Origin: Escherichia phage ECD7
Direction: 5' to 3' (one strand)
Length of the DNA: 64,000 bases
Sequence record: NC_041936.1
The notes under the pieces were generated by a model. That model saw only the letters and a list, made by a program, of their open reading frames with translations. It did no database searches and was not told the origin of the DNA. Below, piece by piece: positions 51,071 to 64,000 of the stretch (positions are counted from its first letter, which is position 1; the number at the start of each line of letters is the position of its first letter). The translations under genes were made by a program, and so were the position numbers.

Positions 51071-51553
51071 TTTTGCTAAATCATTGCAATATTTTAGTGC
51101 CTTAGTTTGAAATTCTGCGCTGTTAAGTTCTTCATAACGGTCATAATCACCGTTTAATGCTGCCTTTCTTGCTTCTTGCTCTATCTGCATGTCAGACATG
51201 ATAATACAGCGATCCCGCGCTTTCATCTTCTCAAGTTGTATAGACTCTTCTTTCTGCTTGCGCAATTCTTCTTGACGCTTCTTTTCTTCTTGTGCTTTCT
51301 CTTCCCGCGCTTCTTTGATTGCATCCTTGAACATCTGCGTTTGTGGTGCTAAACCAACTTTAACGCGATCCACGTCTCGACGTTCCATTTTAGAAATAAA
51401 GCATGATTCGATCTGATCATCACTTGCATATGCTGCTTTACATTCACGAAGCAAGAAAACCGGATCTGATTTAGCATTCATCATAGCTTCCATGTTGGCA
51501 CAACCAGTAAGCATGAATGCAGCCGCAAGACCAATCAGTTTAATCATTTTCAT
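51068..51553 (-). CDS. lipoprotein (signal peptide with lipobox LTGC), coiled-coil body
   Basis: N-terminus MKMIKLIGLAAAFMLTGC; start overlaps stop of upstream ADP-ribosyltransferase gene (ATGA). Confidence 0.65.
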   Translation of the reverse strand: MKMIKLIGLAAAFMLTGCANMEAMMNAKSDPVFLLRECKAAYASDDQIESCFISKMERRDVDRVKVGLAPQTQMFKDAIKEAREEKAQEEKKRQEELRKQKEESIQLEKMKARDRCIIMSDMQIEQEARKAALNGDYDRYEELNSAEFQTKALKYCNDLAK

Positions 51554-52374
51554 TTAGTCACCTCACCGAAAATTGTAAATTGTCTACGATTCTCATCGCC
51601 GAAAGATTCTACTACGTCGTTTACCTTGACGCAAGTCCCGCGCGGTAAAATTACTTCACATTCGCAAGGGTTCCATGCAATTGACCCAACAACAAAACCT
51701 TTATGATCTTTTACGTCAATTACCCATGATACATTACAAGAATGTTGCATCTTTCCGGTCATTGATTCATATCGATTCTCGCAATAAAGGCTAGTGCTGT
51801 TTGATAGCCATCCTCCAAAGATGATTGGTGTCATGCTGGTTGACACAAAGTTTTTAAAGGTAAATTCCTTATCTTCAATAATACGCTCTATTGTCTGAAT
51901 GTCAAGATGTTGACCGCGATAAAGAGTACCGTTTAACTTTTCGGTTTTATCCATGACACAATCCATCAAATCAACAATCTCTGATATCTCATCGGTCATG
52001 TCTTCTTCCCCTAAGAGAGCACCATTTACCCATTCGTATTGTTCGGACACATAATCACAGATTGCATTATATTCTGCTGGGGTTATGTTGTTATGTTTGT
52101 AATGTTTGAATACATTATCTCCAAAGTCTTCGGAGTGTACTTCATACATCACATTAATGATTTTCTTGACAAATCCATAATCTTGTGTCTCACGCTCAAG
52201 GAAGCGGATAACCTTCACATAATCATCAAAGTTAATCTGATCGCTGATCATCTCAGTGATCATGTAACCATTAATCCCCTCAATGTCATATGTTTCGATG
52301 TAATTATCCATACGTTCCATCATTGATTCGCGTGATTCTTCTGAAAGACGAAAATCCTGTAATTTCTTGAACAT
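51550..52374 (-). CDS. ADP-ribosyltransferase, Alt/Mod-like paralogue (274 aa)
   Basis: R-S-E triad: LYRGQ, FVSTS, CECEVILPRG; closely resembles the C-terminal domain of the adjacent Alt. Confidence 0.7.
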   Translation of the reverse strand: MFKKLQDFRLSEESRESMMERMDNYIETYDIEGINGYMITEMISDQINFDDYVKVIRFLERETQDYGFVKKIINVMYEVHSEDFGDNVFKHYKHNNITPAEYNAICDYVSEQYEWVNGALLGEEDMTDEISEIVDLMDCVMDKTEKLNGTLYRGQHLDIQTIERIIEDKEFTFKNFVSTSMTPIIFGGWLSNSTSLYCENRYESMTGKMQHSCNVSWVIDVKDHKGFVVGSIAWNPCECEVILPRGTCVKVNDVVESFGDENRRQFTIFGEVTK

Positions 52375-52452
52375 TTTAAACCTCCCATATAACAGAAAAC
52401 GGGGCTAGTATAAAACTAGTCCCCGTTTGAGTCAACCATTATTTCTTAAAAA

Positions 52453-54504
52453 TTACATTTTAAATTTATCTGGCATTGCGTCTACAGATACCAGATCAGC
52501 GATAAGCTGACGTAGAGTTGCCTTATCTGCTTTCTTACGTTCGGTTTTAGCTTCGCTAATGAAGCTGGAGAAAGACAGGTCAGAAGCAGGTTTAACAACA
52601 CCCTCACGGATGAATGCATCACCGTCCGCGATCATCTCACCAGATTCTTGTAATGCTGCCAGTTCACTTTTGTTCATAATATGTGCCTCAATGTAATAAG
52701 TTTCTTGTGAATCCGTCGATGCCGTAGCACGAGTTACCGTATCAAAGGATAACACAACACCGCGAGGAAGTAAAATCTCGCATTCTTTGTAAGCAAATGC
52801 TTTGTTACCTACTGGCAATACAGGGATGTTTTCCGCGCCAGCGATAGAGAAAGCAACATTAGCGCCACCTTCACCGCGAGAGCCAGCCATAGAATCAACA
52901 CCAGCAACGGCACTAGCCACGTTTGCATTCCAGCCACCAAAAATATTAGGCGCAAGGGAAGTGCTCACATAGTTTTTAAAGTAAAACGCTTTTTGCTTAC
53001 GTGCAGTTTCCCACATTTGCGACCGGAAGTCCATACCACGATACAGAATAGTACCCGGATCAAGTTTAACACCATAGTTAGAGAAGGCATTATCCAGTGC
53101 ATCGCACATCTTGACCAATTCTTCTGGATCTGCGATTCCCTCAAACTCTTCCAGCTTGCGATCAGTTAGGAAGTTGTTCATATTGATGTATGCTGCATCG
53201 GCATATTCGCTCAACACAAAACCTTCCGCGCCCGGCAGATCAAGATCAATATCTGCCATCATTTCACCCATGTTGCTAGCAATTGCTTCAAACATACCGG
53301 ACGCAACATTACGAAGGGCATCGGTTTTAATCTGGGTGATATGACTACGCAGCATTTCAGCTTTTACATCTGCTGGCATAGACTGGTCTACTCGATCCAT
53401 TGCCAGGGCGGTGATCTTGTTTTCGAATACTTCCTCGCTCATGATTTCTTTTAAGCGTTTGATTGAGGCTGCGATAACTTCCGCAGACAACGGATCATAT
53501 TGATCCTGAACTTTTACCAGTTCGCTTACTGCGTATTTTGCATCGGCTTCGCTTTCAAAAATAGTACGCATGAAACCATAGCGAGTGATAATATCACTTG
53601 TCCAGTCATTCAGAGAACGGGCGGTTGAACGTTCTAAGGCTTGACGGTCAATCAGAGTATTAAACTGTTTCTTAGGTTCGGCTTCGGTGATATCTTCTTC
53701 CGGTTTAAGATTAATTTTTTCTGGATGATTCACGTAGTCGCTGTTATAGGTCGCTTGAGTTTTCAGCATTTCTTCTTTAGTCAAACGAGATTTAGCCGCT
53801 ACGCGTTGTTCTGCTTCCGCGTTTCGTTCTTCTTCTGACACAAGACTAGCCGCATACGCCTCATCTTTAGTCAGAGATTCACCAGTAGCCTTAGATACCC
53901 AGCGATCACCTAAATCACTTTCTACTTTAGTGAACAAGGATTCATCAAGTTTAATCCCTTTAATCTTATCAATCGCCATCCCGCGACGTTTGACAACAAC
54001 TAAAGCGATCTTTTTGCTGGTCATTACTTCCTGCTGGAATACTTCAAACTTCGGTGTACGACGCACCAAACGCTCTATAACGCGCTTAACCAGTTCGGTC
54101 TTACCTTTCATGCGGGATACGTTAAAACGGAACATAACAGCGTCTAATTGCGCTTTACGGGCTGTTTCCATAACCACATCAAAAGCACTTGCCATAACTG
54201 CAATCGGGTTATCACCTAGACCATTTTTAAGCTGTACAATACGACCGCTTTTGTTCATTTCACACAGTACAACGTGTGCGGTCTTGTCACCCATACGAAT
54301 AATTTTAGGTGTTTTGTTGGTGAAGTTGCAAAGACGGACAATCACATCTTTATCGCGTGTCTGTACTGCAAAAAGCTGTTTAGGATTCTGCTTAGGCTTT
54401 AAGCATTGTACCGGAGCAATACTGCCAAAGTTTTCTTCCTCTTCCGTCAACAGCCATTTCTCGAAAGATTCAATCATTAGATCGTCGATTTCTAAGTTAA
54501 ACAT
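52453..54504 (-). CDS. alt: Alt ADP-ribosyltransferase (head-packaged)
   Basis: 683 aa (T4 Alt ~682); C-terminal ILYRGMDF...YVSTSLAP...ECEILLPRG. Confidence 0.85.
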   Translation of the reverse strand: MFNLEIDDLMIESFEKWLLTEEEENFGSIAPVQCLKPKQNPKQLFAVQTRDKDVIVRLCNFTNKTPKIIRMGDKTAHVVLCEMNKSGRIVQLKNGLGDNPIAVMASAFDVVMETARKAQLDAVMFRFNVSRMKGKTELVKRVIERLVRRTPKFEVFQQEVMTSKKIALVVVKRRGMAIDKIKGIKLDESLFTKVESDLGDRWVSKATGESLTKDEAYAASLVSEEERNAEAEQRVAAKSRLTKEEMLKTQATYNSDYVNHPEKINLKPEEDITEAEPKKQFNTLIDRQALERSTARSLNDWTSDIITRYGFMRTIFESEADAKYAVSELVKVQDQYDPLSAEVIAASIKRLKEIMSEEVFENKITALAMDRVDQSMPADVKAEMLRSHITQIKTDALRNVASGMFEAIASNMGEMMADIDLDLPGAEGFVLSEYADAAYINMNNFLTDRKLEEFEGIADPEELVKMCDALDNAFSNYGVKLDPGTILYRGMDFRSQMWETARKQKAFYFKNYVSTSLAPNIFGGWNANVASAVAGVDSMAGSRGEGGANVAFSIAGAENIPVLPVGNKAFAYKECEILLPRGVVLSFDTVTRATASTDSQETYYIEAHIMNKSELAALQESGEMIADGDAFIREGVVKPASDLSFSSFISEAKTERKKADKATLRQLIADLVSVDAMPDKFKM

Positions 54505-54857: not shown

Positions 54858-55376
54858 TTAGTTATTTTTTAATTGCTCATCTTGCAATAGGGCAATCACA
54901 TGCTGGCGATGTTCTTCCGATTGAGGCACACCGAAAAAGTTTGTTTTGTAGAAATACTCTAATCGGTCTTCTCGTGTGCTCTCTTCCATCATGATCGCGG
55001 GTAGTCCGAGATTTCGGAAACGTCGCTTTTCTGCTGGCGTAAAATCACTGTAATACAGCATATAATCATCATTACCAGCAATGCTAAACTCATCCTTCAT
55101 GAAAGAGAATATTGCGTTTAAACGCTGTTTACCGTCCACGATTTCGATTTCATAGCGAGAGCCATCATCAATCTTAGCCATTGCGATAGCACCAACCGGA
55201 AAATCATTAATCAGGTTTTCGATAAACATACGTTTGTTTTCTGTGTCCCATACCAAAGGACGCTGATAATCTGGGTTCATGTTGATATAGCCATCTTCTA
55301 ACCATGCTTCGTAAACAGAGATGACAAAGTTTTTAGTATTGGTATAGTAACGGCGTTTAGGCGTTAAACGGTTCAT
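54858..55376 (-). CDS. DUF262/ParB-like nuclease-superfamily protein (172 aa from ATG 55376)
   Basis: Motifs DYQRPLVW and IVDGKQRLNAI; start has GGAG SD and abuts upstream stop. Confidence 0.55.
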   Translation of the reverse strand: MNRLTPKRRYYTNTKNFVISVYEAWLEDGYINMNPDYQRPLVWDTENKRMFIENLINDFPVGAIAMAKIDDGSRYEIEIVDGKQRLNAIFSFMKDEFSIAGNDDYMLYYSDFTPAEKRRFRNLGLPAIMMEESTREDRLEYFYKTNFFGVPQSEEHRQHVIALLQDEQLKNN

Positions 55377-55377
55377 A

Positions 55378-55707
55378 TTATAGTCTCCTGAATGGATCAT
55401 CACGTAAATCAATATCTTTTAAGAACTCATCCCATGAATGGCGGATATTGTTCTTAATTCTCCAGATAAGCGCAGGGATTGAACGCTCTCCCATCTGGAA
55501 GTAAGGATCATATGATCCGTATGCCCAATATGCTACTACAATTCCACAATCAGCGCAATAGTATTCTATTTCACTTGCTGGCGACCAAAGTCCATCAATA
55601 TGATCAGTGATCTTGCTTTCGATGTTATGGCTATGACAATCAGGGCAACGGATGCAATGACCTTGTTTATCGTAATTTGACGTTAGAGAATACTTAAACA
55701 ATCTCAT
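55378..55707 (-). CDS. small zinc-ribbon protein (109 aa)
   Basis: CIRCPDCH ... CADCG Cys pairs. Confidence 0.55.
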   Translation of the reverse strand: MRLFKYSLTSNYDKQGHCIRCPDCHSHNIESKITDHIDGLWSPASEIEYYCADCGIVVAYWAYGSYDPYFQMGERSIPALIWRIKNNIRHSWDEFLKDIDLRDDPFRRL

Positions 55708-56423
55708 TATAGATCCTTATTGGCTTCAAATACTGCCTTTGCGAATCCTCGCGGCGTAAGTGACCTGATAGTCTTTGTTCTGGTTCCTTTCCCGCCTAGC
55801 TTAGAATGCTGTTTGCTGTACCCTTTATTAATCTGCAACGGTTTCTTTTCTGGCATTATAAAGCCTTGTCCGGTCCATAAGCAAGTCTTTTTCGGGTACA
55901 TATCACGGGCGGCAATATACTCAGGAAACGTAGGATGCTTATCATCTTCCGGCAAATAACCGCCATATTCCCACGGATGGAACATGTAATCAGGCTTACG
56001 CCACATACTAGAGATAACGCTTACAGGATTCTCTATCATATAGGGAACTCCTAGCCATTCACCCAAATAAGCGGTTATTTTAGCTGCCCGTACATCATGA
56101 ACTTGAATCAATGGTCCTTGTTCTCGTTTCTTTCGTTCAAAGTGTGCAGCGCCACTAACAGCTAAATTGGTGCACGGTGGGAATGCAAATATAATATCCG
56201 GTTTCCCCCATTCAAGGTCCATTGCTCTTTCCAGCCAGTTCAAATCAATCCAGGTGTTTACATAGGTAATGTTTGGATGTTCAAATCTGGTATTATACTT
56301 TTTGTATGTACCGTGGTCGGCGTCATCCGCATTAAAGCAGACTACCTTATGACCTGCTTTAGCCCATTCTAGCCCCATTATCCCCGATCCGTCAAAGTTG
56401 CAGAATATTAATTTTTGTTTCAT
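55707..56423 (-). CDS. C5-cytosine methyltransferase-like protein (238 aa)
   Basis: FDGSGIMG (motif I-like), FAFPPCTNLAVSG (PC motif IV-like), MIENPVS (ENV motif VI-like); shorter than typical C5-MTases. Confidence 0.5.
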   Translation of the reverse strand: MKQKLIFCNFDGSGIMGLEWAKAGHKVVCFNADDADHGTYKKYNTRFEHPNITYVNTWIDLNWLERAMDLEWGKPDIIFAFPPCTNLAVSGAAHFERKKREQGPLIQVHDVRAAKITAYLGEWLGVPYMIENPVSVISSMWRKPDYMFHPWEYGGYLPEDDKHPTFPEYIAARDMYPKKTCLWTGQGFIMPEKKPLQINKGYSKQHSKLGGKGTRTKTIRSLTPRGFAKAVFEANKDL

Positions 56424-56982: not shown

Positions 56983-56996
56983 CACTTTTTATAAAA

Positions 56997-57164
56997 TTAT
57001 TTGTTAATTTCTGGTGCGTTGCTCGGATAGTAACCTTCTTTAACGCCCAGGTATTTCGCAACCATCCCTACAATCTTCTGTGCTACTACAATGTCAAATT
57101 TCAGATAATCTTCGCCGTGGGTTTCAATGATATATGCTTCACATGCTGCTTTAGTCTCGAACAT
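56997..57164 (-). CDS. hypothetical small protein (55 aa), paralogue of 60255..60422
   Basis: MFETKAACEAYIIETHGEDYLKFDIVVAQKIVGMVAKYLGVKEGYYPSNAPEINK; below ORF-track size cutoff. Confidence 0.6.
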   Translation of the reverse strand: MFETKAACEAYIIETHGEDYLKFDIVVAQKIVGMVAKYLGVKEGYYPSNAPEINK

Positions 57165-57197
57165 TTTGATTCTCCTATTTCGTTTCGGTATGGGTGT

Positions 57198-57226
57198 ATT
57201 ATAGGGGATCTCCCGATCCCCGTCAA
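57198..57226 (-). promoter_or_regulatory. promoter-leader cassette copy c (TTGACG, spacer ggggatcgggagatccc, TATAAT)
   Basis: -35 at 57221..57226, -10 at 57198..57203. Confidence 0.6.
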
Positions 57227-57240
57227 CAACTTTTTTAAAA

Positions 57241-57954: not shown

Positions 57955-57980
57955 TAAAAAAGCCGACGCTATGGTCGGCT
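57955..57980 (-). terminator. rho-independent terminator (agccgac-gctatg-gtcggct, T6 on minus strand)
   Basis: Follows gene 57988..58296. Confidence 0.6.
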
Positions 57981-57987
57981 AATAAAA

Positions 57988-58296
57988 TCATTTAGACAAA
58001 TAATCATTCTGTGCAATCCGGTCGGCGTATGCTGGTGTTATGTCAATCGCCAGCACTTTAACGCGTGCTTTCTTGCGACCTGGGTTTTCTCGTAACCAGT
58101 GCTCATGACCGTGAATATTTTTATACTGCGATGCTTCTTCGAAGGTACGGATCGGACCTGGGTAATCAGCGTAAAGGATCTCTAGATCTTCGGTGATGTA
58201 AAAATATACATCGTAATTGCTGTTCTCTAGCTTAAGCAGAGACTTTCGGAACATTGGGAGATTTTCGCGGGTAAATTCAAAGATATTATCTTTCAT
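57988..58296 (-). CDS. HxHW-family small protein, member 1 (102 aa)
   Basis: HGHEHWLRENPGRKKARVKVLAIDI. Confidence 0.6.
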   Translation of the reverse strand: MKDNIFEFTRENLPMFRKSLLKLENSNYDVYFYITEDLEILYADYPGPIRTFEEASQYKNIHGHEHWLRENPGRKKARVKVLAIDITPAYADRIAQNDYLSK

Positions 58297-58320
58297 AGTA
58301 TTATCCTCAATAGTTGGATG

Positions 58321-58340
58321 AAAAGGGGCGTTAACGCCCC
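58321..58340 (-). terminator. rho-independent terminator (ggggcg-ttaa-cgcccc, TTTT on minus strand)
   Basis: Follows gene 58347..58634. Confidence 0.6.
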
Positions 58341-58346
58341 CATATA

Positions 58347-58634
58347 TTAAAACAGTCCTTCCTGTACACCGTAGTAGAGTTCGTCGCTGATAATTTCATT
58401 AATGCGACGGTGTGCATATTCCTGATTTGCGAAGTTGTCAGCAAGTTCTACTTTAGTTTCGCCGTCATGAGTCCATTTAGTGATAACTTTACCATCTGCA
58501 AATTTGAAGTTGAACTCTTTAGCTACTGCATCGCGTACCAGACGTGCAAACTTATTGTTGCGGATTGCATTGTCGGTTTCGTGTGCAGCGTGAGCAAATT
58601 TGTTAACTTTCAGAGTGATAGTGATGTATGCCAT
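58347..58634 (-). CDS. hypothetical protein (95 aa), AKEFN-family with 61640..61951
   Basis: RLVRDAVAKEFNFKF vs LIREVRKALAKEFNTKI. Confidence 0.55.
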   Translation of the reverse strand: MAYITITLKVNKFAHAAHETDNAIRNNKFARLVRDAVAKEFNFKFADGKVITKWTHDGETKVELADNFANQEYAHRRINEIISDELYYGVQEGLF

Positions 58635-58680
58635 AATTTGATTCTCCTAGTTAGAAAGTGTATCTCGTTTCGATGGGGAT

Positions 58681-58709
58681 ATTATGCTATACCCCCGATC
58701 TGGTGTCAA
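58681..58709 (-). promoter_or_regulatory. promoter-leader cassette copy f (TTGACA, 17 nt, CATAAT)
   Basis: -35 at 58704..58709, -10 at 58681..58686. Confidence 0.55.
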
Positions 58710-58715
58710 CACTTT

Positions 58716-59009
58716 TTATAAAATAATTTTTTGATATTTTTCTATGATGTTCGTGTAAGTCACATCAACCGCTAGCACCGTTGCTTCGAATCCACCGTTT
58801 AGCCAATGGCTATGATCATGGTCGTGAAAGAAACCTAGTCCAGTACGAAGACCTTCTTTATATTCTGCGCGTACATTCAGTTTGTCGTCGATAAACAGAT
58901 AAAACCATGAATTTTTACTAGGATTGATGATACAACCTTTCAGATTAGGGAGAATATCACGACTAAGAATAAATTTATCACCTACTTTGAACATAATATT
59001 AGTCCTCAC
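58716..59009 (-). CDS. HxHW-family small protein, member 2 (97 aa)
   Basis: HDHDHSHWLNGGFEATVLAVDV. Confidence 0.6.
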   Translation of the reverse strand: MRTNIMFKVGDKFILSRDILPNLKGCIINPSKNSWFYLFIDDKLNVRAEYKEGLRTGLGFFHDHDHSHWLNGGFEATVLAVDVTYTNIIEKYQKIIL

Positions 59010-59319
59010 TTATAAGGTCAAACCAATTGTTTTTCGCATAATGCTTAATGCGTGCTTGATCTGCTTCCGCTGGTGATAGATTCCATGCAACCACTACAAC
59101 TTCTGACGCATCGTCATCAGTTTCTGATACCCAATGATTGTGATTCATACAGTTATTTGCTATCGAGTGAGCAAATGATTTCATCACTGGAGACGTATAA
59201 TCATAGTAACGGATTTTCAGATTTTCATCAACATACAAATAGATCGTATAAGGTTTATATTCAGTAACCAGTAACAGACAGTTACGCAATTCTGGGAAAA
59301 TCTTTTTAGTTAATTTCAT
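58999..59319 (-). CDS. HxHW-family small protein, member 3 (106 aa)
   Basis: MNHNHWVSETDDDASEVVVVAWNL. Confidence 0.6.
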   Translation of the reverse strand: MKLTKKIFPELRNCLLLVTEYKPYTIYLYVDENLKIRYYDYTSPVMKSFAHSIANNCMNHNHWVSETDDDASEVVVVAWNLSPAEADQARIKHYAKNNWFDLISED

Positions 59320-59521
59320 ATTCTAGTTCTCCGTAATACACAGTAATCCATTTTTCTTCATACTTTGTATCTTTCCAGCACACAACCCCGTTTACTGTGC
59401 AATCTTTGGAATTGACGAATGATTCATATTGTTCTGCATCTTCCATCATTTCATGAGCGGTCTTTTCATCGAATATATCGCAGATCGCTTTATATGCTCG
59501 ATAATCTTTAAATTTGCTCAT
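59306..59521 (-). CDS. hypothetical small protein (71 aa from MSKFKDYRAY), tandem paralogue 1
   Basis: N-terminus and MMEDA motif shared with 59524..59733. Confidence 0.55.
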   Translation of the reverse strand: MSKFKDYRAYKAICDIFDEKTAHEMMEDAEQYESFVNSKDCTVNGVVCWKDTKYEEKWITVYYGELEYEIN

Positions 59522-59523
59522 AA

Positions 59524-59733
59524 TTAACACCACTCAAGAGTTTTTGAAAACACATCTATCCATTGTTGAGTATATGCGGTTTCTTTCCATGATACAATAC
59601 CAGTCGAATAATGGTTTTTGTTTCCAGAAAAGGACGGGCATTTTGATGCATCTTCCATCATCTTTTCGGCGAACTCTGGTGCGTATACTCGCAAGATCTG
59701 TTGATATGCTTTGTAGTCTTTAAATTTGCTCAT
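59524..59733 (-). CDS. hypothetical small protein (69 aa), tandem paralogue 2
   Basis: MSKFKDYKAY...EKMMEDASK. Confidence 0.55.
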   Translation of the reverse strand: MSKFKDYKAYQQILRVYAPEFAEKMMEDASKCPSFSGNKNHYSTGIVSWKETAYTQQWIDVFSKTLEWC

Positions 59734-59998
59734 AATCGTTAACTACCTTATCAGCTTCTTTTATTGTTTTTACATCAACTGCGATAATACGTAAAGGTTC
59801 GTCGAAGGTCCACCAATGATCGTGAATATCAGCTTGTGATTTATCACCAAAGGAATCACGAATATCATTTTTACATTTATAGCTAATGTGACCGTTATAG
59901 TCAACATAAAGGTAATTATCGAAAATCGGCGTTTTTAAGATCATACCGAAAAATCTTTCTTTGTGTGTCTTATCCAGCGTTGCAGTAATTCGCATCAT
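59720..59998 (-). CDS. HxHW-family small protein, member 4 (92 aa)
   Basis: ADIHDHWWTFDEPLRIIAVDV. Confidence 0.6.
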   Translation of the reverse strand: MMRITATLDKTHKERFFGMILKTPIFDNYLYVDYNGHISYKCKNDIRDSFGDKSQADIHDHWWTFDEPLRIIAVDVKTIKEADKVVNDYEQI

Positions 59999-60010
59999 AA
60001 TATATTCCTC

Positions 60011-60190
60011 TTAGAAAGGGATGGTCATTTCTTGAGCTTGTACATTCTCGTTAGGATTAAACTTCATCCAACCGATATTGTCTACCAGCATATACACATT
60101 TTTATCATATCCTACGTGAGTAGTCAACACTAAATGTGCTTTACCTTCAACGATGATTTCCATGTACTTCTGAACTTCGATAGCTTTCAT
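60011..60190 (-). CDS. hypothetical small protein (59 aa)
   Basis: ORF with GGAGAATC SD; below ORF-track size cutoff. Confidence 0.5.
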   Translation of the reverse strand: MKAIEVQKYMEIIVEGKAHLVLTTHVGYDKNVYMLVDNIGWMKFNPNENVQAQEMTIPF

Positions 60191-60222
60191 TTTGATTCTC
60201 CGTTTGTTGTCTTGATGGGAGT

Positions 60223-60251
60223 ATCTTACTACTCCCTTTAATCATTGTCAA
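60223..60251 (-). promoter_or_regulatory. promoter-leader cassette copy g (TTGACA, spacer with palindrome gggagta-n6-tactccc, TAAGAT)
   Basis: -35 at 60246..60251, -10 at 60223..60228. Confidence 0.5.
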
Positions 60252-60254
60252 CGA

Positions 60255-60422
60255 TTATTTGTTAATTTCCGGTGCGTTGCTTGGATAGTAACCTTCTTTA
60301 ACACCCAGATATTTTGCAACCATTCCGGTGATCTTCTGTGCCACTACGATATCGAATTTCAGGTAGTCTTCACCGTGGGTTGCTACAATGTATGCTTCGC
60401 ATTCTGCTTTAGTCTGGAACAT
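60255..60422 (-). CDS. hypothetical small protein (55 aa), paralogue of 56997..57164
   Basis: MFQTKAECEAYIVATHGEDYLKFDIVVAQKITGMVAKYLGVKEGYYPSNAPEINK. Confidence 0.6.
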   Translation of the reverse strand: MFQTKAECEAYIVATHGEDYLKFDIVVAQKITGMVAKYLGVKEGYYPSNAPEINK

Positions 60423-60455
60423 TTTGATTCTCCTTTATCTCGTTGGTATGTGTGC

Positions 60456-60484
60456 ATTATAGGGGATCACCGATCCCCTGTCAA
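60456..60484 (-). promoter_or_regulatory. promoter-leader cassette copy h (consensus TTGACA, 17-nt perfect palindrome ggggatcggtgatcccc, TATAAT)
   Basis: -35 at 60479..60484, -10 at 60456..60461; two GATC sites in spacer. Confidence 0.65.
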
Positions 60485-60489
60485 CAACT

Positions 60490-60783
60490 TTATAATGCTT
60501 TATATGCGTATTTCATAAATTTGTCTGCCACTTCATTGGCATGTTCAGATTCTACGCCTGATTCGAGAACAATAGCTAGGTCGGTTTCGTCATTCCCGCC
60601 GTACCAATGATTTGATGTTCGATTTTTTTCAATTGGAAATTGGTCACTTTTATCTGTGCGACAAAATACATCTAAATGCTCGTCGATGTAAAAGATCCAA
60701 TCTTCATAAAGAATAACGGTATTAGCCAGATTTTTATTGCCTTCAACGAAAGGTTCGGCTACAAACAAATTAGTATGTTCCAT
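60490..60783 (-). CDS. HxHW-family small protein, member 5 (start likely ATG 60783)
   Basis: TSNHWYGGNDETDLAIVLESG; track ORF extends to 60840, overlapping upstream ORF. Confidence 0.5.
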   Translation of the reverse strand: MEHTNLFVAEPFVEGNKNLANTVILYEDWIFYIDEHLDVFCRTDKSDQFPIEKNRTSNHWYGGNDETDLAIVLESGVESEHANEVADKFMKYAYKAL

Positions 60784-60799
60784 AGTAATTTCCTCAAAA

Positions 60800-60991
60800 T
60801 TATACAGCTTCGTAAACTTCCCAATGTCCAACACCAGCACGCTTAACGAAAAGGTTTTCTTTGATGTTATTCATAAACGTCTGGATGGATTTAATGCGGT
60901 TTGAAGGTTTCCATTCTTCGTTGGCATTGCGTCGATACATCATAACATTACCAGTTCGCTTATATTCAGCAACCATTTTAAGACCACACAT
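60800..60991 (-). CDS. hypothetical small protein (63 aa), ends with GHW motif
   Basis: GAGGA SD before ATG 60991; C-terminal GVGHWEVYEAV may be a truncated family member. Confidence 0.4.
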   Translation of the reverse strand: MCGLKMVAEYKRTGNVMMYRRNANEEWKPSNRIKSIQTFMNNIKENLFVKRAGVGHWEVYEAV

Positions 60992-61048
60992 AATATTATC
61001 CTCAATTTGCGGGAGAGTATTACCCCTCCCAATGATTGTTATGTTATA

Positions 61049-61369
61049 TCACACAAAATGGCGTGTCAATGCTTCTTTTGCGGTTCCGCTAAGACTTTCG
61101 ATCTCGCCTGGCATAACATCAACCGCCAGAACTTCTACAACATCCTCGGACCCTAACCAGTGAGTATGGCCTTTGTAGAACTTGATAACCAGACTACCTT
61201 CCTCGTCCCATTTAACGCTATCGCTAGCCCACCACACATCACCGTCGATAAAGTTGATGTAAAGCACACTACGCAACATTGAATTAATTACTTTCAATAC
61301 TGCGCCTTTCATCTCTTCCACGGTATGGTCTTCCATTTTGAAGACCATACCTACCTGAACTTTTGCCAT
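61049..61369 (-). CDS. HxHW-family small protein, member 6 (106 aa)
   Basis: KGHTHWLGSEDVVEVLAVDV. Confidence 0.6.
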   Translation of the reverse strand: MAKVQVGMVFKMEDHTVEEMKGAVLKVINSMLRSVLYINFIDGDVWWASDSVKWDEEGSLVIKFYKGHTHWLGSEDVVEVLAVDVMPGEIESLSGTAKEALTRHFV

Positions 61370-61386
61370 TTAGTCACCTCTCTTTA

Positions 61387-61566
61387 TTACATAACAATCA
61401 CGCCAGCCGTTGAAAGTTGATGTTTCAACTGAGCATTTTCTGCTACCGTCAAATCAATGATTTCTTGTGACGCTGCAATCATATATCCATTGGTGATATT
61501 GTTTTGCATCAGTTCAATGGTTTCTTCGTTGTAGCGGATTTTAGCGATGATTTCGTTGAAGTTCAT
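61387..61566 (-). CDS. hypothetical small protein (59 aa)
   Basis: ORF directly downstream of cassette copy i; below ORF-track size cutoff. Confidence 0.5.
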   Translation of the reverse strand: MNFNEIIAKIRYNEETIELMQNNITNGYMIAASQEIIDLTVAENAQLKHQLSTAGVIVM

Positions 61567-61600
61567 GATTGATTCTCCTAGTTCGTTTCGGTATGTGTGT

Positions 61601-61630
61601 AGTATAGGGGATCTCCCGATCCCCTGTCAA
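61601..61630 (-). promoter_or_regulatory. promoter-leader cassette copy i (TTGACA, 18-nt palindromic spacer ggggatcgggagatcccc, TATACT)
   Basis: -35 at 61625..61630, -10 at 61601..61606. Confidence 0.6.
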
Positions 61631-61639
61631 CAACTTTTT

Positions 61640-61951
61640 TTAAAGTTTTTCCATGATAACGGTCATAATTACATCTTCTGCGCGAGCGGTCAGATTATCA
61701 GCGTCAGCATGTGGGCGGTTGGTTGTTACAGAGATAACACCGTTGCGCACTGGTTTGATATTGATATCAAGATGATCCGCGAAACGTTCGCCAGTTACAG
61801 AATGAATTTTGGTGTTAAATTCTTTTGCCAGTGCCTTGCGAACTTCACGAATCAGGGTAGCGTTTTTCAGTTGGTTCTCCGCGCTCATGGTCTTCTGGGT
61901 GTTCATGGTTCCGTCGAAGTCAATCATTGGCAGCGTTACGATGTATTTCAT
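61640..61951 (-). CDS. hypothetical protein (103 aa), AKEFN-family with 58347..58634
   Basis: Shared AKEFN motif. Confidence 0.55.
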   Translation of the reverse strand: MKYIVTLPMIDFDGTMNTQKTMSAENQLKNATLIREVRKALAKEFNTKIHSVTGERFADHLDINIKPVRNGVISVTTNRPHADADNLTARAEDVIMTVIMEKL

Positions 61952-61996: not shown

Positions 61997-62025
61997 AGTA
62001 TAGGGGATACGTGATCCCCTGTCAA
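61997..62025 (-). promoter_or_regulatory. promoter-leader cassette copy j (TTGACA, spacer ggggatcacgtatcccc, TATACT)
   Basis: -35 at 62020..62025, -10 at 61997..62002. Confidence 0.6.
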
Positions 62026-62038
62026 CAACTTTTTTGAA

Positions 62039-62515
62039 TTATTTTTCTTGATGCTCGCGCTCGTACTTTTCGAAATAAAATTCTACTGGCTGGTCATGAA
62101 TTGACAGCAAGCCAAAGCGTTTAGCCGCTCGCAATCCCATATTGCGCTGAATGTACTTCTGGAAGTTCTCGCGTATACACTTACGCCAGTATTCTAAGCC
62201 CATACAGCTTTTATAAAGATTGCATTGTACACACGCCGGATTCATGTTATCAAGTATATCATGTTCCGGTTTATGCATTCCTACAACCTTATACTTCCAC
62301 GACCCATCATCATTACGGGCAATTCGTCCATTTTCATCATAGACTACCTTTGAGCGTCGCAATACTGGTTTGATATGGTCTGCGTGCCAGCGATCCCCTA
62401 GTTCCTCGCCACAATAGGCACAACGCCCACCGTATTTCATTTTCAGGATCTGGCGTTGCTCTTTCTTTGACAATTTTTTAGGTTTAGGGGCTTTCGCCCC
62501 TTCATTATCACACAT
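62039..62515 (-). CDS. HNH endonuclease
   Basis: CAYCGEEL...WHADHIKP...NMNPACVQCN; 158 aa; start overlaps ligase stop by 8 nt. Confidence 0.7.
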   Translation of the reverse strand: MCDNEGAKAPKPKKLSKKEQRQILKMKYGGRCAYCGEELGDRWHADHIKPVLRRSKVVYDENGRIARNDDGSWKYKVVGMHKPEHDILDNMNPACVQCNLYKSCMGLEYWRKCIRENFQKYIQRNMGLRAAKRFGLLSIHDQPVEFYFEKYEREHQEK

Positions 62516-64000
62516 CGAATACCTCTTTTACTGTATTTGCAGTGGTCTTGTCGTAGCGAATACGTTTGATGATTGGGAGAAATAAAGAGAACTCCGGTTC
62601 ATCTTCTTTACGTGATTTGCTGCGGATATACCCGTTGCATGTCATCTCAATGACTTTTCCAATCAGGTTATGACGGTCAGTCCATAACATTTCTCGGTCG
62701 AGTTCATTTCGACGATCGAACGGAATTACACGTTCAGTACCATCATCACCTTTTTCGGTTGTAGTGTCGGTTAATCCCGATCCGGTGTTAGTCATCATTC
62801 GTCCGCACGCACTACGGACAGTAAAACCGCCTACCTTATTGGGGTCTTTACTATGCGGATATACATCAACAATTTCCGCGTCGAAGTCAATCACTTCTTT
62901 AAATTTAACCTGATCTTTACTACGGCGATCTTCAAATACACCATGTAAATTTTTAAGGATAATACCTTCTAAGCCCATGTTTACATAGCGATGATATACT
63001 TCGCGAGCTTCATCGATATTGTTAACTACAGTGTTTTCGATTATCTGAACACGAGGATCGTTAAGTTCTTCAACAATCTGTTTTAGCTCTTCGAATCGAT
63101 CTTTATATTGCTTCGTTGCTTTCTCGTTTCCGTAATACACATCACGGTCGATAACATCCCAGACAGTGTAAACAATACATTGGGCTTCTTCTTTTGGAAT
63201 AGTTCCTTTCAGTGATTTGTTGAGGATACCATTTCCGGTCTGACGATCTGCAACAACGGATTCTTTCACCGCTTCCGCTACTGGCGTTAATGGCATTTCC
63301 TCTTCTTCAAATATCCATGACAGAGTACCATCATAAACGCTCTCAACGAAGTTCTGCGCTGGTGTTTGCGAAAGGGTAGGCATATATACCAATTCGCCAT
63401 CTAGAACAATTCCACGGCCTCGTAGACTCTCTAAAACCGCAAACAAATCATCAAGCCCTTGATAGGTATTACCTGAACGGGTATAGATTGCTAATGTTTC
63501 CCCGTCAATATCAGCCATACCACGAGCGCCATCGCTTTTAAGTTGTGCATACGCCGGATATTTGATATTGGCAATGGTCTTATCAGAACATGACGATGCA
63601 AGGTGGCACGGCTGCTGGGGGATCAGTTTCTTCCATACCTTGTTTGCAGTGGTAGCGGAACAACCGCATTCCAGGTCACGATTCAGGACCATCATTGCAA
63701 CTTTAGCATCATCTTCTGACAAGCAAGTCAGAGTATCGGTAACTAGCTGTAATGCTGCATTACCAGTTACTTGACGTGTGGCAAGTTTATTTTTAAAGAC
63801 TTGTAATGCACCGGATAAAGACAATACAGACGAATAGCGCGATGGTTTATCGTATTTCTTTACGCCAAACGTAACCTGTTTGCAATATGCCAGATAAAAG
63901 CATTCTTTCAGTGTTTCATTGCTTGCAGATTCTTTCAGGATCTTTTCTTTCAGCGATGTTTTGTCTGTTGCTGCAAGCTGATTAATGATATTAAGAATTG
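62508..64000 (-). CDS. 30: ATP-dependent DNA ligase gp30, 5'-truncated by window end
   Basis: KxDGxR adenylation motif in QLKSDGARG; resembles T4 ligase (TGNAA, RDLECG, ASS); minus-strand frame open from 63825 to 64000 with no stop. Confidence 0.85.
   Translation of the reverse strand, partial: ILNIINQLAATDKTSLKEKILKESASNETLKECFYLAYCKQVTFGVKKYDKPSRYSSVLSLSGALQVFKNKLATRQVTGNAALQLVTDTLTCLSEDDAKVAMMVLNRDLECGCSATTANKVWKKLIPQQPCHLASSCSDKTIANIKYPAYAQLKSDGARGMADIDGETLAIYTRSGNTYQGLDDLFAVLESLRGRGIVLDGELVYMPTLSQTPAQNFVESVYDGTLSWIFEEEEMPLTPVAEAVKESVVADRQTGNGILNKSLKGTIPKEEAQCIVYTVWDVIDRDVYYGNEKATKQYKDRFEELKQIVEELNDPRVQIIENTVVNNIDEAREVYHRYVNMGLEGIILKNLHGVFEDRRSKDQVKFKEVIDFDAEIVDVYPHSKDPNKVGGFTVRSACGRMMTNTGSGLTDTTTEKGDDGTERVIPFDRRNELDREMLWTDRHNLIGKVIEMTCNGYIRSKSRKEDEPEFSLFLPIIKRIRYDKTTANTVKEVFDV

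Follow-up and report, generated by a model that had tools for sequence, protein, structure and literature searches.

The question raised by positions 57988-61369 of a 64,000-nucleotide stretch of Escherichia phage ECD7 (sequence record NC_041936.1; the whole stretch is called the window below) is whether six small open reading frames (ORFs) whose products share a His-Trp motif belong to one protein family, how such an array came about and what the proteins may do. Sequence comparisons indicate that the six genes, here called A to F by position, are paralogues which diverged long ago into subtypes of a single protein family, and that this family is restricted to one lineage, Krischvirus together with a few uncultured relatives. 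The window itself belongs to Krischvirus (RB49-like "pseudo-T-even" Straboviridae, T4-type coliphages), and the 3.5-kb interval around the genes shows 94–98% identity to Krischvirus genomes (n>50), with JEP8 as the best overall match. The interval is the counterpart of RB49 ORFs 197-208, all annotated as "hypothetical protein"; all its genes are on the minus strand and it is situated in the early hyperplastic region, between the DNA ligase gp30 and the Alt ADP-ribosyltransferases.

A previous sequence-only reading had placed six ORFs here with the clusters HGHEHW, HDHDHSHW, NHNHW, HDHWW, SNHW and GHTHW, and all of them are present at those places on the minus strand. Paralogue A (57988-58296, 102 amino acids (aa), orthologue of RB49 ORF197) carries HGHEHW, with the HW codons at 58096-58101, and starts with ATG and the Shine-Dalgarno sequence GAGGA. 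It is followed by B (58716-58994, 92 aa, ORF199, HDHDHSHW, HW codons 58803-58808), C (58999-59319, 106 aa, ORF200, NHNHW, HW codons 59131-59136), D (59720-59998, 92 aa, ORF203, IHDHWW, HW codons 59813-59818), E (60490-60783, 97 aa, ORF206, SNHW, HW codons 60604-60609) and F (61049-61369, 106 aa, ORF208, GHTHW, HW codons 61157-61162). A Shine-Dalgarno sequence and an ATG are found at all six genes, and for B and E the shorter starts (ATG 58994 and ATG 60783) are favoured by ribosome-binding sites and by the RB49 annotation. The proteins are soluble, of 92–106 aa, and in each a V-L-A-V-D-V strand is located 10–15 residues after the His-Trp motif. The N-terminal halves, previously described as divergent, are indeed so yet nevertheless homologous, with a conserved [LF]-Y-[IV]-D motif, while an acidic stretch proposed to follow the His cluster is not universal since the corresponding stretch of A is basic. 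In PHROGs the six genes (E 1e-49 to 1e-72) are split into five families, all listed with "unknown function", where only A and C stand together (phrog_9345) and B, D, E and F fall in phrog_17255, phrog_15972, phrog_15965 and phrog_16486, respectively. Profile and structure evidence unites these five separate PHROGs as one superfamily.

Pairwise identity between the paralogues is 15–32%. With BLASTP, A and C match at E 3e-10, and shuffle z-scores among A, B, C, D and F range from 4 to 20. When the subtype profiles were compared using hhalign the matches were always co-linear (A-C 98%, A-E 92%, A-B 90%, A-F 89%, B-D 64%). Hidden Markov models (HMMs) built with one paralogue left out retrieved the omitted one as the top non-training match of 725 window ORFs in six cases out of six, with E-values of 1.3e-13 (A), 6.9e-9 (B), 7.9e-13 (C), 3e-5 (D), 2.5e-3 (E) and 7.4e-9 (F), while the best noise match in these searches had E 0.45. 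Paralogue E is the weakest link and is supported at profile level only. Over ~90 residues, which comprise [LF]-Y-[IV]-D, H-x-H-W and the V-L-A-x-D-V strand, all six match the profile co-linearly. The z-scores, the hhalign comparisons and the leave-one-out HMMs thus show that the motif similarity is significant beyond composition, as first suspected, and the six genes are almost certainly real coding paralogues, together making up a genuine small-protein family in a part of the phage genome rich in cassettes. The alternative that a DNA or RNA element is conserved, and not a protein motif, was rejected, since the His codons switch between CAT and CAC, so that it is the protein sequence which is conserved and not that of the DNA, and only a 17-nt stretch coding for VLAVDV repeats.

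Concerning the distribution of the family, a word-indexed search gave only orthologues at at least 70% identity. An exhaustive HMM search of 1.84 billion protein cluster representatives revealed 20 matches, 19 of them family members; about a dozen of the 20 are more distant members, all retaining H-x-H-W, and the last match, P0101 (532 aa, E 1.3e-4), looks spurious. This search showed no fusion to a known domain and no match resembling a T4-type protein of known function. Among 50,697 deposited phage genomes the family is confined to Krischvirus, and scans of IMG/VR seeded by two distant members gave no match. The distant members are all found on short metagenomic contigs. One of these (L005, 20 kb) comes from a Krischvirus-like T4-type phage with ~71% nucleotide identity in the gp30 ligase region and harbours two family members, likewise located downstream of the gp30 ligase. 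Another (L002, 2.1 kb) contains five family domains across four adjacent genes, and on this contig P0089 (823-1434), with 203 aa, consists of two family domains naturally fused in tandem, which hints that family domains may act as dimers.

When scored against the subtype HMMs, the metagenomic members gave 47–142 bits on one subtype and at most 30 on the others (e.g. 111–142 bits versus <25), the exceptions being the A/C pair and the weakly B-like P0089. Types C, D, E and F could thus be assigned cleanly, and B weakly, with P0098 as a relative of D, five distant relatives of E, and P0093 and L002_229 as relatives of F. That the distant members sort into the same subtypes indicates that the subtypes pre-date the genus and that the array is old.

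Structures of A and B were predicted by AlphaFold2 using the family alignments. The model of A (predicted local distance difference test (pLDDT) 86.3, predicted template modelling score (pTM) 0.81) and that of B (pLDDT 88, pTM 0.84) have the same order of elements, a predicted alpha/beta fold b-a-b-b-b-loop-a-b-a. It begins with a strand, a short helix and three strands; a long variable loop then leads to a second short helix with HxHW at its start, and the fold is completed by the V-L-A-V-D-V strand followed by a C-terminal helix. A fold search of the PDB with the predicted models gave no match to any solved structure. In BFVD, Foldseek with the A model retrieved the independently modelled C and two other family members (E 5e-7 to 5e-4) and no matches outside the family. 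Conservation was counted over 18 representatives of <60% identity, and the conserved polar positions are H66 and W67 (both 18/18), H64 and Y33 (both 17/18) and D35 (15/18), all remaining conserved columns being hydrophobic. The superfamily now has a sharp signature, Y-I-D ... H-x-H-W ... V-L-A-x-D-V, together with a confident fold model lacking a solved counterpart.

A further relative was suggested by the fold. In some Krischvirus genomes an extra gene of 88 aa, reading YVTEDD...GNGHLI...LLAHSV, is located directly upstream of F (JSE, L011 2581-2847; G2248, L013 2651-2917; UPWr_E1, L014 2828-3094; also L004 763-1032), and it is absent from the window between 61369 and 61387. Its product matches the A model by Foldseek (template modelling score 0.60–0.68) but not the family HMM (E ~0.8), and judging from the models it is probably a very divergent seventh subtype which has lost HxHW.

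The conserved His cluster makes metal binding, also raised by the sequence-only reading, a reasonable hypothesis. According to the mechanism proposed here D35 (in Y-I-D) and both His of H-x-H-W would make up a small centre binding a metal, most likely Zn2+, or a ligand; this centre would tie the long b4-a3 loop to the sheet and be anchored in the core by the invariant Trp (W67), while the subtype-specific N-terminal face and the loop would direct each paralogue to a host target of its own, either in takeover or in counter-defence. The best explanation overall, which we hold tentatively, is that of old early accessory paralogues with such a putative Asp/His/His centre. Taken separately, the centre itself is possible but rather doubtful, and a host-takeover or anti-defence role may be put forward as a possibility, not as the likely case. 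A bolder version, which must be called unlikely, would be a new-fold class of ~100-aa phage metalloproteins using one Asp, two His and a Trp, where six early effectors act against host takeover or defence targets as homo- or heterodimers; the idea of dimers comes from two natural fusions, P0089 and an ORF207-E fusion in phage FL04.

Several observations weigh against the best explanation. Searches of Pfam, NCBIfam, PHROGs and the PDB and the fold searches gave no match pointing to a function, and within the models pLDDT is lowest, ~69, around the motif. In addition, D35 is replaced by Thr in A and by Asn in F, and H64 by Ser in E of the window (other E alleles keep the His), so that a strict three-ligand site is not universal, and the 88-aa member recognised by its fold has GNGHLI (JSE, G2248, UPWr_E1) where HxHW would be expected. 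A search of the literature gave no paper mentioning these ORFs, nor any treating Krischvirus together with anti-defence.

These replacements (T35, N35 and S64) and the missing motif in the 88-aa relative are what would be expected if HxHW and Y-I-D were purely structural, in metal-free proteins acting as stoichiometric inhibitors or adaptors whose variable surface binds a different host protein in each case. The majority of the conserved columns belong to the hydrophobic core and the Trp is invariant, and small, acidic proteins made early by phages generally act by binding other proteins. However, two His placed two residues apart are invariant across subtypes of only 15–30% identity, which would be unusual for a purely structural motif, and the natural alleles short of one His are confined to a single clade of E. 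Metal-free binders are a possible alternative, about as probable as the metal or ligand centre, but not the likely case.

The conserved polar triad could also be catalytic, making the proteins small enzymes, e.g. hydrolases or phosphodiesterases whose substrate would be a nucleotide signal, an RNA or a small metabolite, different for each subtype. This is improbable, as no hydrolase family is matched significantly by fold or by sequence, as 92–106 aa and five strands would make an unusually small enzyme of this kind, as the motif is not HxHxDH and as ligand positions are lost in functional-looking alleles still under purifying selection.

Less credible still is a distant homology to the zinc-binding histidine-triad repeat of streptococcal Pht proteins (upstream Asp/Glu and HxxHxH), in which zinc is bound tetrahedrally by an acidic residue ~21 residues upstream and the His triad (PMC3842936). 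A PDB profile search did align Y-I-D-E...HxHW to several PhtD repeats (e.g. YTTEDGYIF...HMTHSHWIKKD), and the repeat (PF04270; PDB 2CS7; t-PhtD) resembles the family in that an acidic residue precedes, by 20–30 residues, a His cluster whose last residue is aromatic. The match was not significant (E 2.2), the Pfam family Strep_his_triad was not matched and no Pht structure was found among the listed fold matches. Furthermore, the first His of the triad is not conserved, leaving HxH against HxxHxH, the aligned acidic ligand is two residues off the conserved D35, and AlphaFold2 places HxHW at the start of a helix and not in a three-stranded sheet. The Pht proteins are also surface lipoproteins while the HxHW proteins are cytoplasmic phage proteins. 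With this E-value, a different motif and a different predicted secondary structure, homology was rejected and the likeness regarded as an analogy only.

Weak matches in Pfam and NCBIfam (PROCT, Cupin_2, TTL and the F1 epsilon subunit) were all below threshold. A JAMM/MPN protein, brought up by the weak PROCT match, was rejected because no Pfam match exceeded the gathering score and the MPN fold is absent, and a cupin (a non-significant vicilin match, E 1.6, in the PDB profile search and one Cupin_2 match with E 0.2) because the model consists of five strands and helices and not of a beta-barrel. A role in DNA or RNA binding was rejected as well: A to F are neutral to acidic, with isoelectric points of 4.5–6.9, which argues against nucleic-acid binding.

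T4-type phages harbour multigene families of small early accessory proteins, e.g. the non-essential early ORFs near gene 30 of T4. The HxHW family resembles these in its location in the early region, its small size, its dispensability and its lineage-specific copy number, but differs in that the exhaustive HMM search revealed no sequence relatives outside the Krischvirus-like lineage. Orphan early genes fill the hyperplastic regions of T4-type phages and their roles are the main unknown of phage-host biology. If Asp/His/His does bind a metal the proteins would represent a new minimal metal-binding fold and, if not, an ordinary lineage-specific orphan family. As it stands this is an unnamed family of that kind in a well-known type of phage region and not a new mechanism, and its interest is moderate.

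The origin of the array was addressed by comparing orthologues across ten Krischvirus genomes. The ratio of non-synonymous to synonymous substitutions (dN/dS) was 0.19 for A, 0.035 for B, 0.20 for C, 0.18 for D, 0.15 for E and 0.15 for F, which indicates purifying selection and not diversification. All six members are present in the same order in eight of the ten Krischvirus loci compared, the window included. A is split by a frameshift in kvi (L009 1295-1752) and in JSE (L011 5697-6085), and E of JSE is shortened at its N-terminus; such cases could represent pseudogenes or errors in the sequences. The E alleles are strongly diverged, with 70–99% aa identity among Krischvirus and a dS of 0.77 versus 0.1–0.3 for the neighbouring genes, and in one clade, to which the window belongs, the first His of the motif is polymorphic (His/Ser), with Ser in RB49, JEP8 and the window. 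The block A-D of the window is closest to MIZ4 (98.6%) whereas the block E-F is closest to JEP8, KFS-EC and Cognac (~99%), MIZ4 reaching only 90% there, so the array of the window is a mosaic.

When the surroundings were analysed a direct repeat of 238 nt appeared, with a left copy at 56996-57233 and a right copy at 60254-60491 (84% nucleotide identity, spacing 3258), each consisting of a gene for a 55-aa protein and the leader of a promoter-early stem-loop (PeSL). The two copies bracket a 3.26-kb block containing ORF193, ORF194, A, ORF198, B, C, both genes of a pair named after its sequence MSKFKDY, D and a 59-aa ORF. In phages FL04 and Cognac a single hybrid copy of the repeat is found and the 3,258 bp between the copies, including A-D, are gone. 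The crossover points of the two differ, and so do their E-F backgrounds (89% versus 99% identity), and from the sequences the deletions are therefore read as independent recombinations between PeSL repeats. PeSL repeats thus demonstrably gain or lose the 3.26-kb block with its four members, and the existence of natural phages without A-D shows that these four are dispensable, at any rate when the phages are grown on laboratory E. coli. Subtypes that are old and individually maintained, yet dispensable as a group on laboratory strains, have the profile expected of host-range or counter-defence factors, and FL04 and Cognac, as natural four-gene deletion mutants with directly testable phenotypes, together with the sharp motif make the family experimentally tractable. 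In Cognac (L016, MZ504877.1) the coordinates of the 55-aa gene, E, ORF207, F, o59 and ORF210 differ from those of the window (60255-61951) by exactly +60,000, and on the left side of the deletion the difference amounts to 63,258; this is probably a coincidence.

PeSLs were demonstrated in this hyperplastic region of RB49 and phi1, where their promoter and terminator activity was tested experimentally with reporter assays and minicircles were shown for ORF191-194 and ORF210 (Arbiol et al. 2010, PMC2839356). The array resembles the PeSL-bounded ORFan cassettes of these phages (PMC2839356; Comeau et al. 2014, PMC4122927) in being located in the same hyperplastic region of the same genome type, in having near-consensus σ70 promoters with a stem-loop which separate groups of small orphan ORFs, and in the removal of a block by recombination of two PeSL-containing repeats, as in FL04 and Cognac. 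It differs in that the HxHW genes are internal to operons and not single-gene cassettes, and in that the origin of the family is much older than the cassette shuffling. A text search of the two papers showed no mention of paralogy among ORFs 197, 199, 200, 203, 206 and 208.

It had been suggested that the family is a diversifying one made by cassette-mediated duplication, which would make it a recently expanded one. In favour of this, PeSLs are dense in the region, the 55-aa gene with its PeSL is truly a recent duplicate (84% nucleotide and 91% aa identity), and the two members on the contig L005 are both E-type copies, i.e. a lineage-specific duplication. For the six genes, on the other hand, this origin is very unlikely. 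They are 15–32% identical with no nucleotide similarity left beyond the motif codons, the subtypes are older than the split from the distant metagenomic relatives, which sort by the same subtypes, dN/dS is low throughout (0.04–0.20) and the genes stand in one invariable order in the eight genomes examined that have six members. Individual family genes are neither flanked by PeSLs nor promoter-proximal in a cassette; PeSLs on both sides are found around multigene blocks only, and presence/absence polymorphism with the crossover inside the repeats concerns the A-D block as a whole. Neither "diversifying" nor "generated by cassette-mediated duplication" can thus be upheld. That the six would be chance motifs or non-coding ORFs, to which only the non-significant single-sequence comparisons with E lend support, has practically no likelihood in view of the leave-one-out HMMs, hhalign, the confident and concordant AlphaFold2 models, the Shine-Dalgarno sites, the purifying selection and the conservation across >50 genomes and in distant relatives.

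Near-consensus σ70 promoters with embedded stem-loops are found on the minus strand at ~62025, 61630, 60484, 58709, 57930, 57584, 57226 and 56982, and each promoter-proximal gene has the stereotyped leader GGAGAATCAAA-ATG. The family genes are never promoter-proximal but always internal operon genes with their own Shine-Dalgarno sites. A PeSL-type early promoter at 61601-61630 (minus strand, TTGACA-18-TATACT with a stem-loop) heads o59 (61387-61566), F, ORF207 and E. A second PeSL promoter at 60456-60484 (minus strand), with a 12/12 consensus and the stem-loop AGGGGATCACCGATCCCCT, heads the 55-aa gene at 60255-60422, and a weaker promoter-like site at 60223-60251 (minus strand, 10/12) heads o59' (60011-60190), D, the two MSKFKDY genes (MSK2, MSK1), C and B, a tightly packed putative operon with gaps between genes of -14 to +12 nt. 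The PeSL promoter at 58681-58709 (minus strand) heads ORF198 (58347-58634) and A, directly after which a hairpin resembling an intrinsic terminator (57961-57980, minus strand) closes the array; the same site is annotated as a terminator in G2248. From this arrangement the family genes appear to be co-transcribed early from σ70-type PeSL promoters in three short operons downstream of gene 30, the early timing being deduced from the promoter type and the reporter assays in RB49 and phi1, and they are probably early accessory genes. A literature search for transcriptomes of Krischvirus or RB49 gave nothing relevant. An 18-nt translation-initiation region, ATTGAGGATAATAYTATG, which differs from the PeSL leader GGAGAATCAAA-ATG, is common to A, E and ORF207 (58294-58311, 60781-60798 and 60989-61006; 83–94% identical).

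The ORF207 orthologue (60800-60991, minus strand, 63 aa, phrog_16334), which ends in GVGHWEVYEAV, had been considered a possible seventh, remnant member of the family, but no membership is detectable (family HMM E = 62; shuffle z at most 1 against all six). In the window ORF207 and E are in different frames and the final 11 codons of ORF207 overlap the region upstream of E, while in FL04 the two form a single in-frame ORF of 172 aa (L015 3246-3764), in which GVGHWEVYEAV is replaced. UPWr_E1 has no ORF207.

The duplicated genes interleaved with the array, as noted earlier, are real pairs of paralogues. The copies of the 55-aa gene, one at 60255-60422 (minus strand) and the other outside the array at 56997-57164, encode proteins of 91% identity. 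The MSKFKDY genes (59306-59521 and 59524-59733, minus strand, phrog_8471) form a tandem pair between C and D with 44% identity (E 6e-21). In the third pair, named after the sequence AKEFN, the ORF198 orthologue (95 aa, minus strand) is a remote paralogue of ORF210 (61640-61951), the copy situated outside 57988-61369; pairwise BLASTP gave nothing significant, while both match phrog_7474 at ~1e-43 and a local match of 24 aa has a z of 5.8.

On one side the array is flanked by an HNH gene (62039-62515) and the DNA ligase gp30 (62508-63824). In RB49, ORF211, an integron-ORF homologue discussed by Arbiol et al., is located between the HNH gene and ORF210, while in the window the HNH gene is directly followed (62025-62039) by the PeSL and ORF210 without ORF211, as is also the case in phi1. 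On the opposite side a DNA methyltransferase (55707-56423) and two Alt-type ADP-ribosyltransferases (51550-54504) are found. Between these a 184-aa protein encoded at 54858-55412 (minus strand) matches the GmrSD_N / DUF262 ParB-like nuclease domain (E 6e-20); its C-terminal DUF1524 nuclease half is apparently missing, and its gene adjoins a Zn-ribbon-like ORF (55378-55707) which is followed by the DNA methyltransferase.

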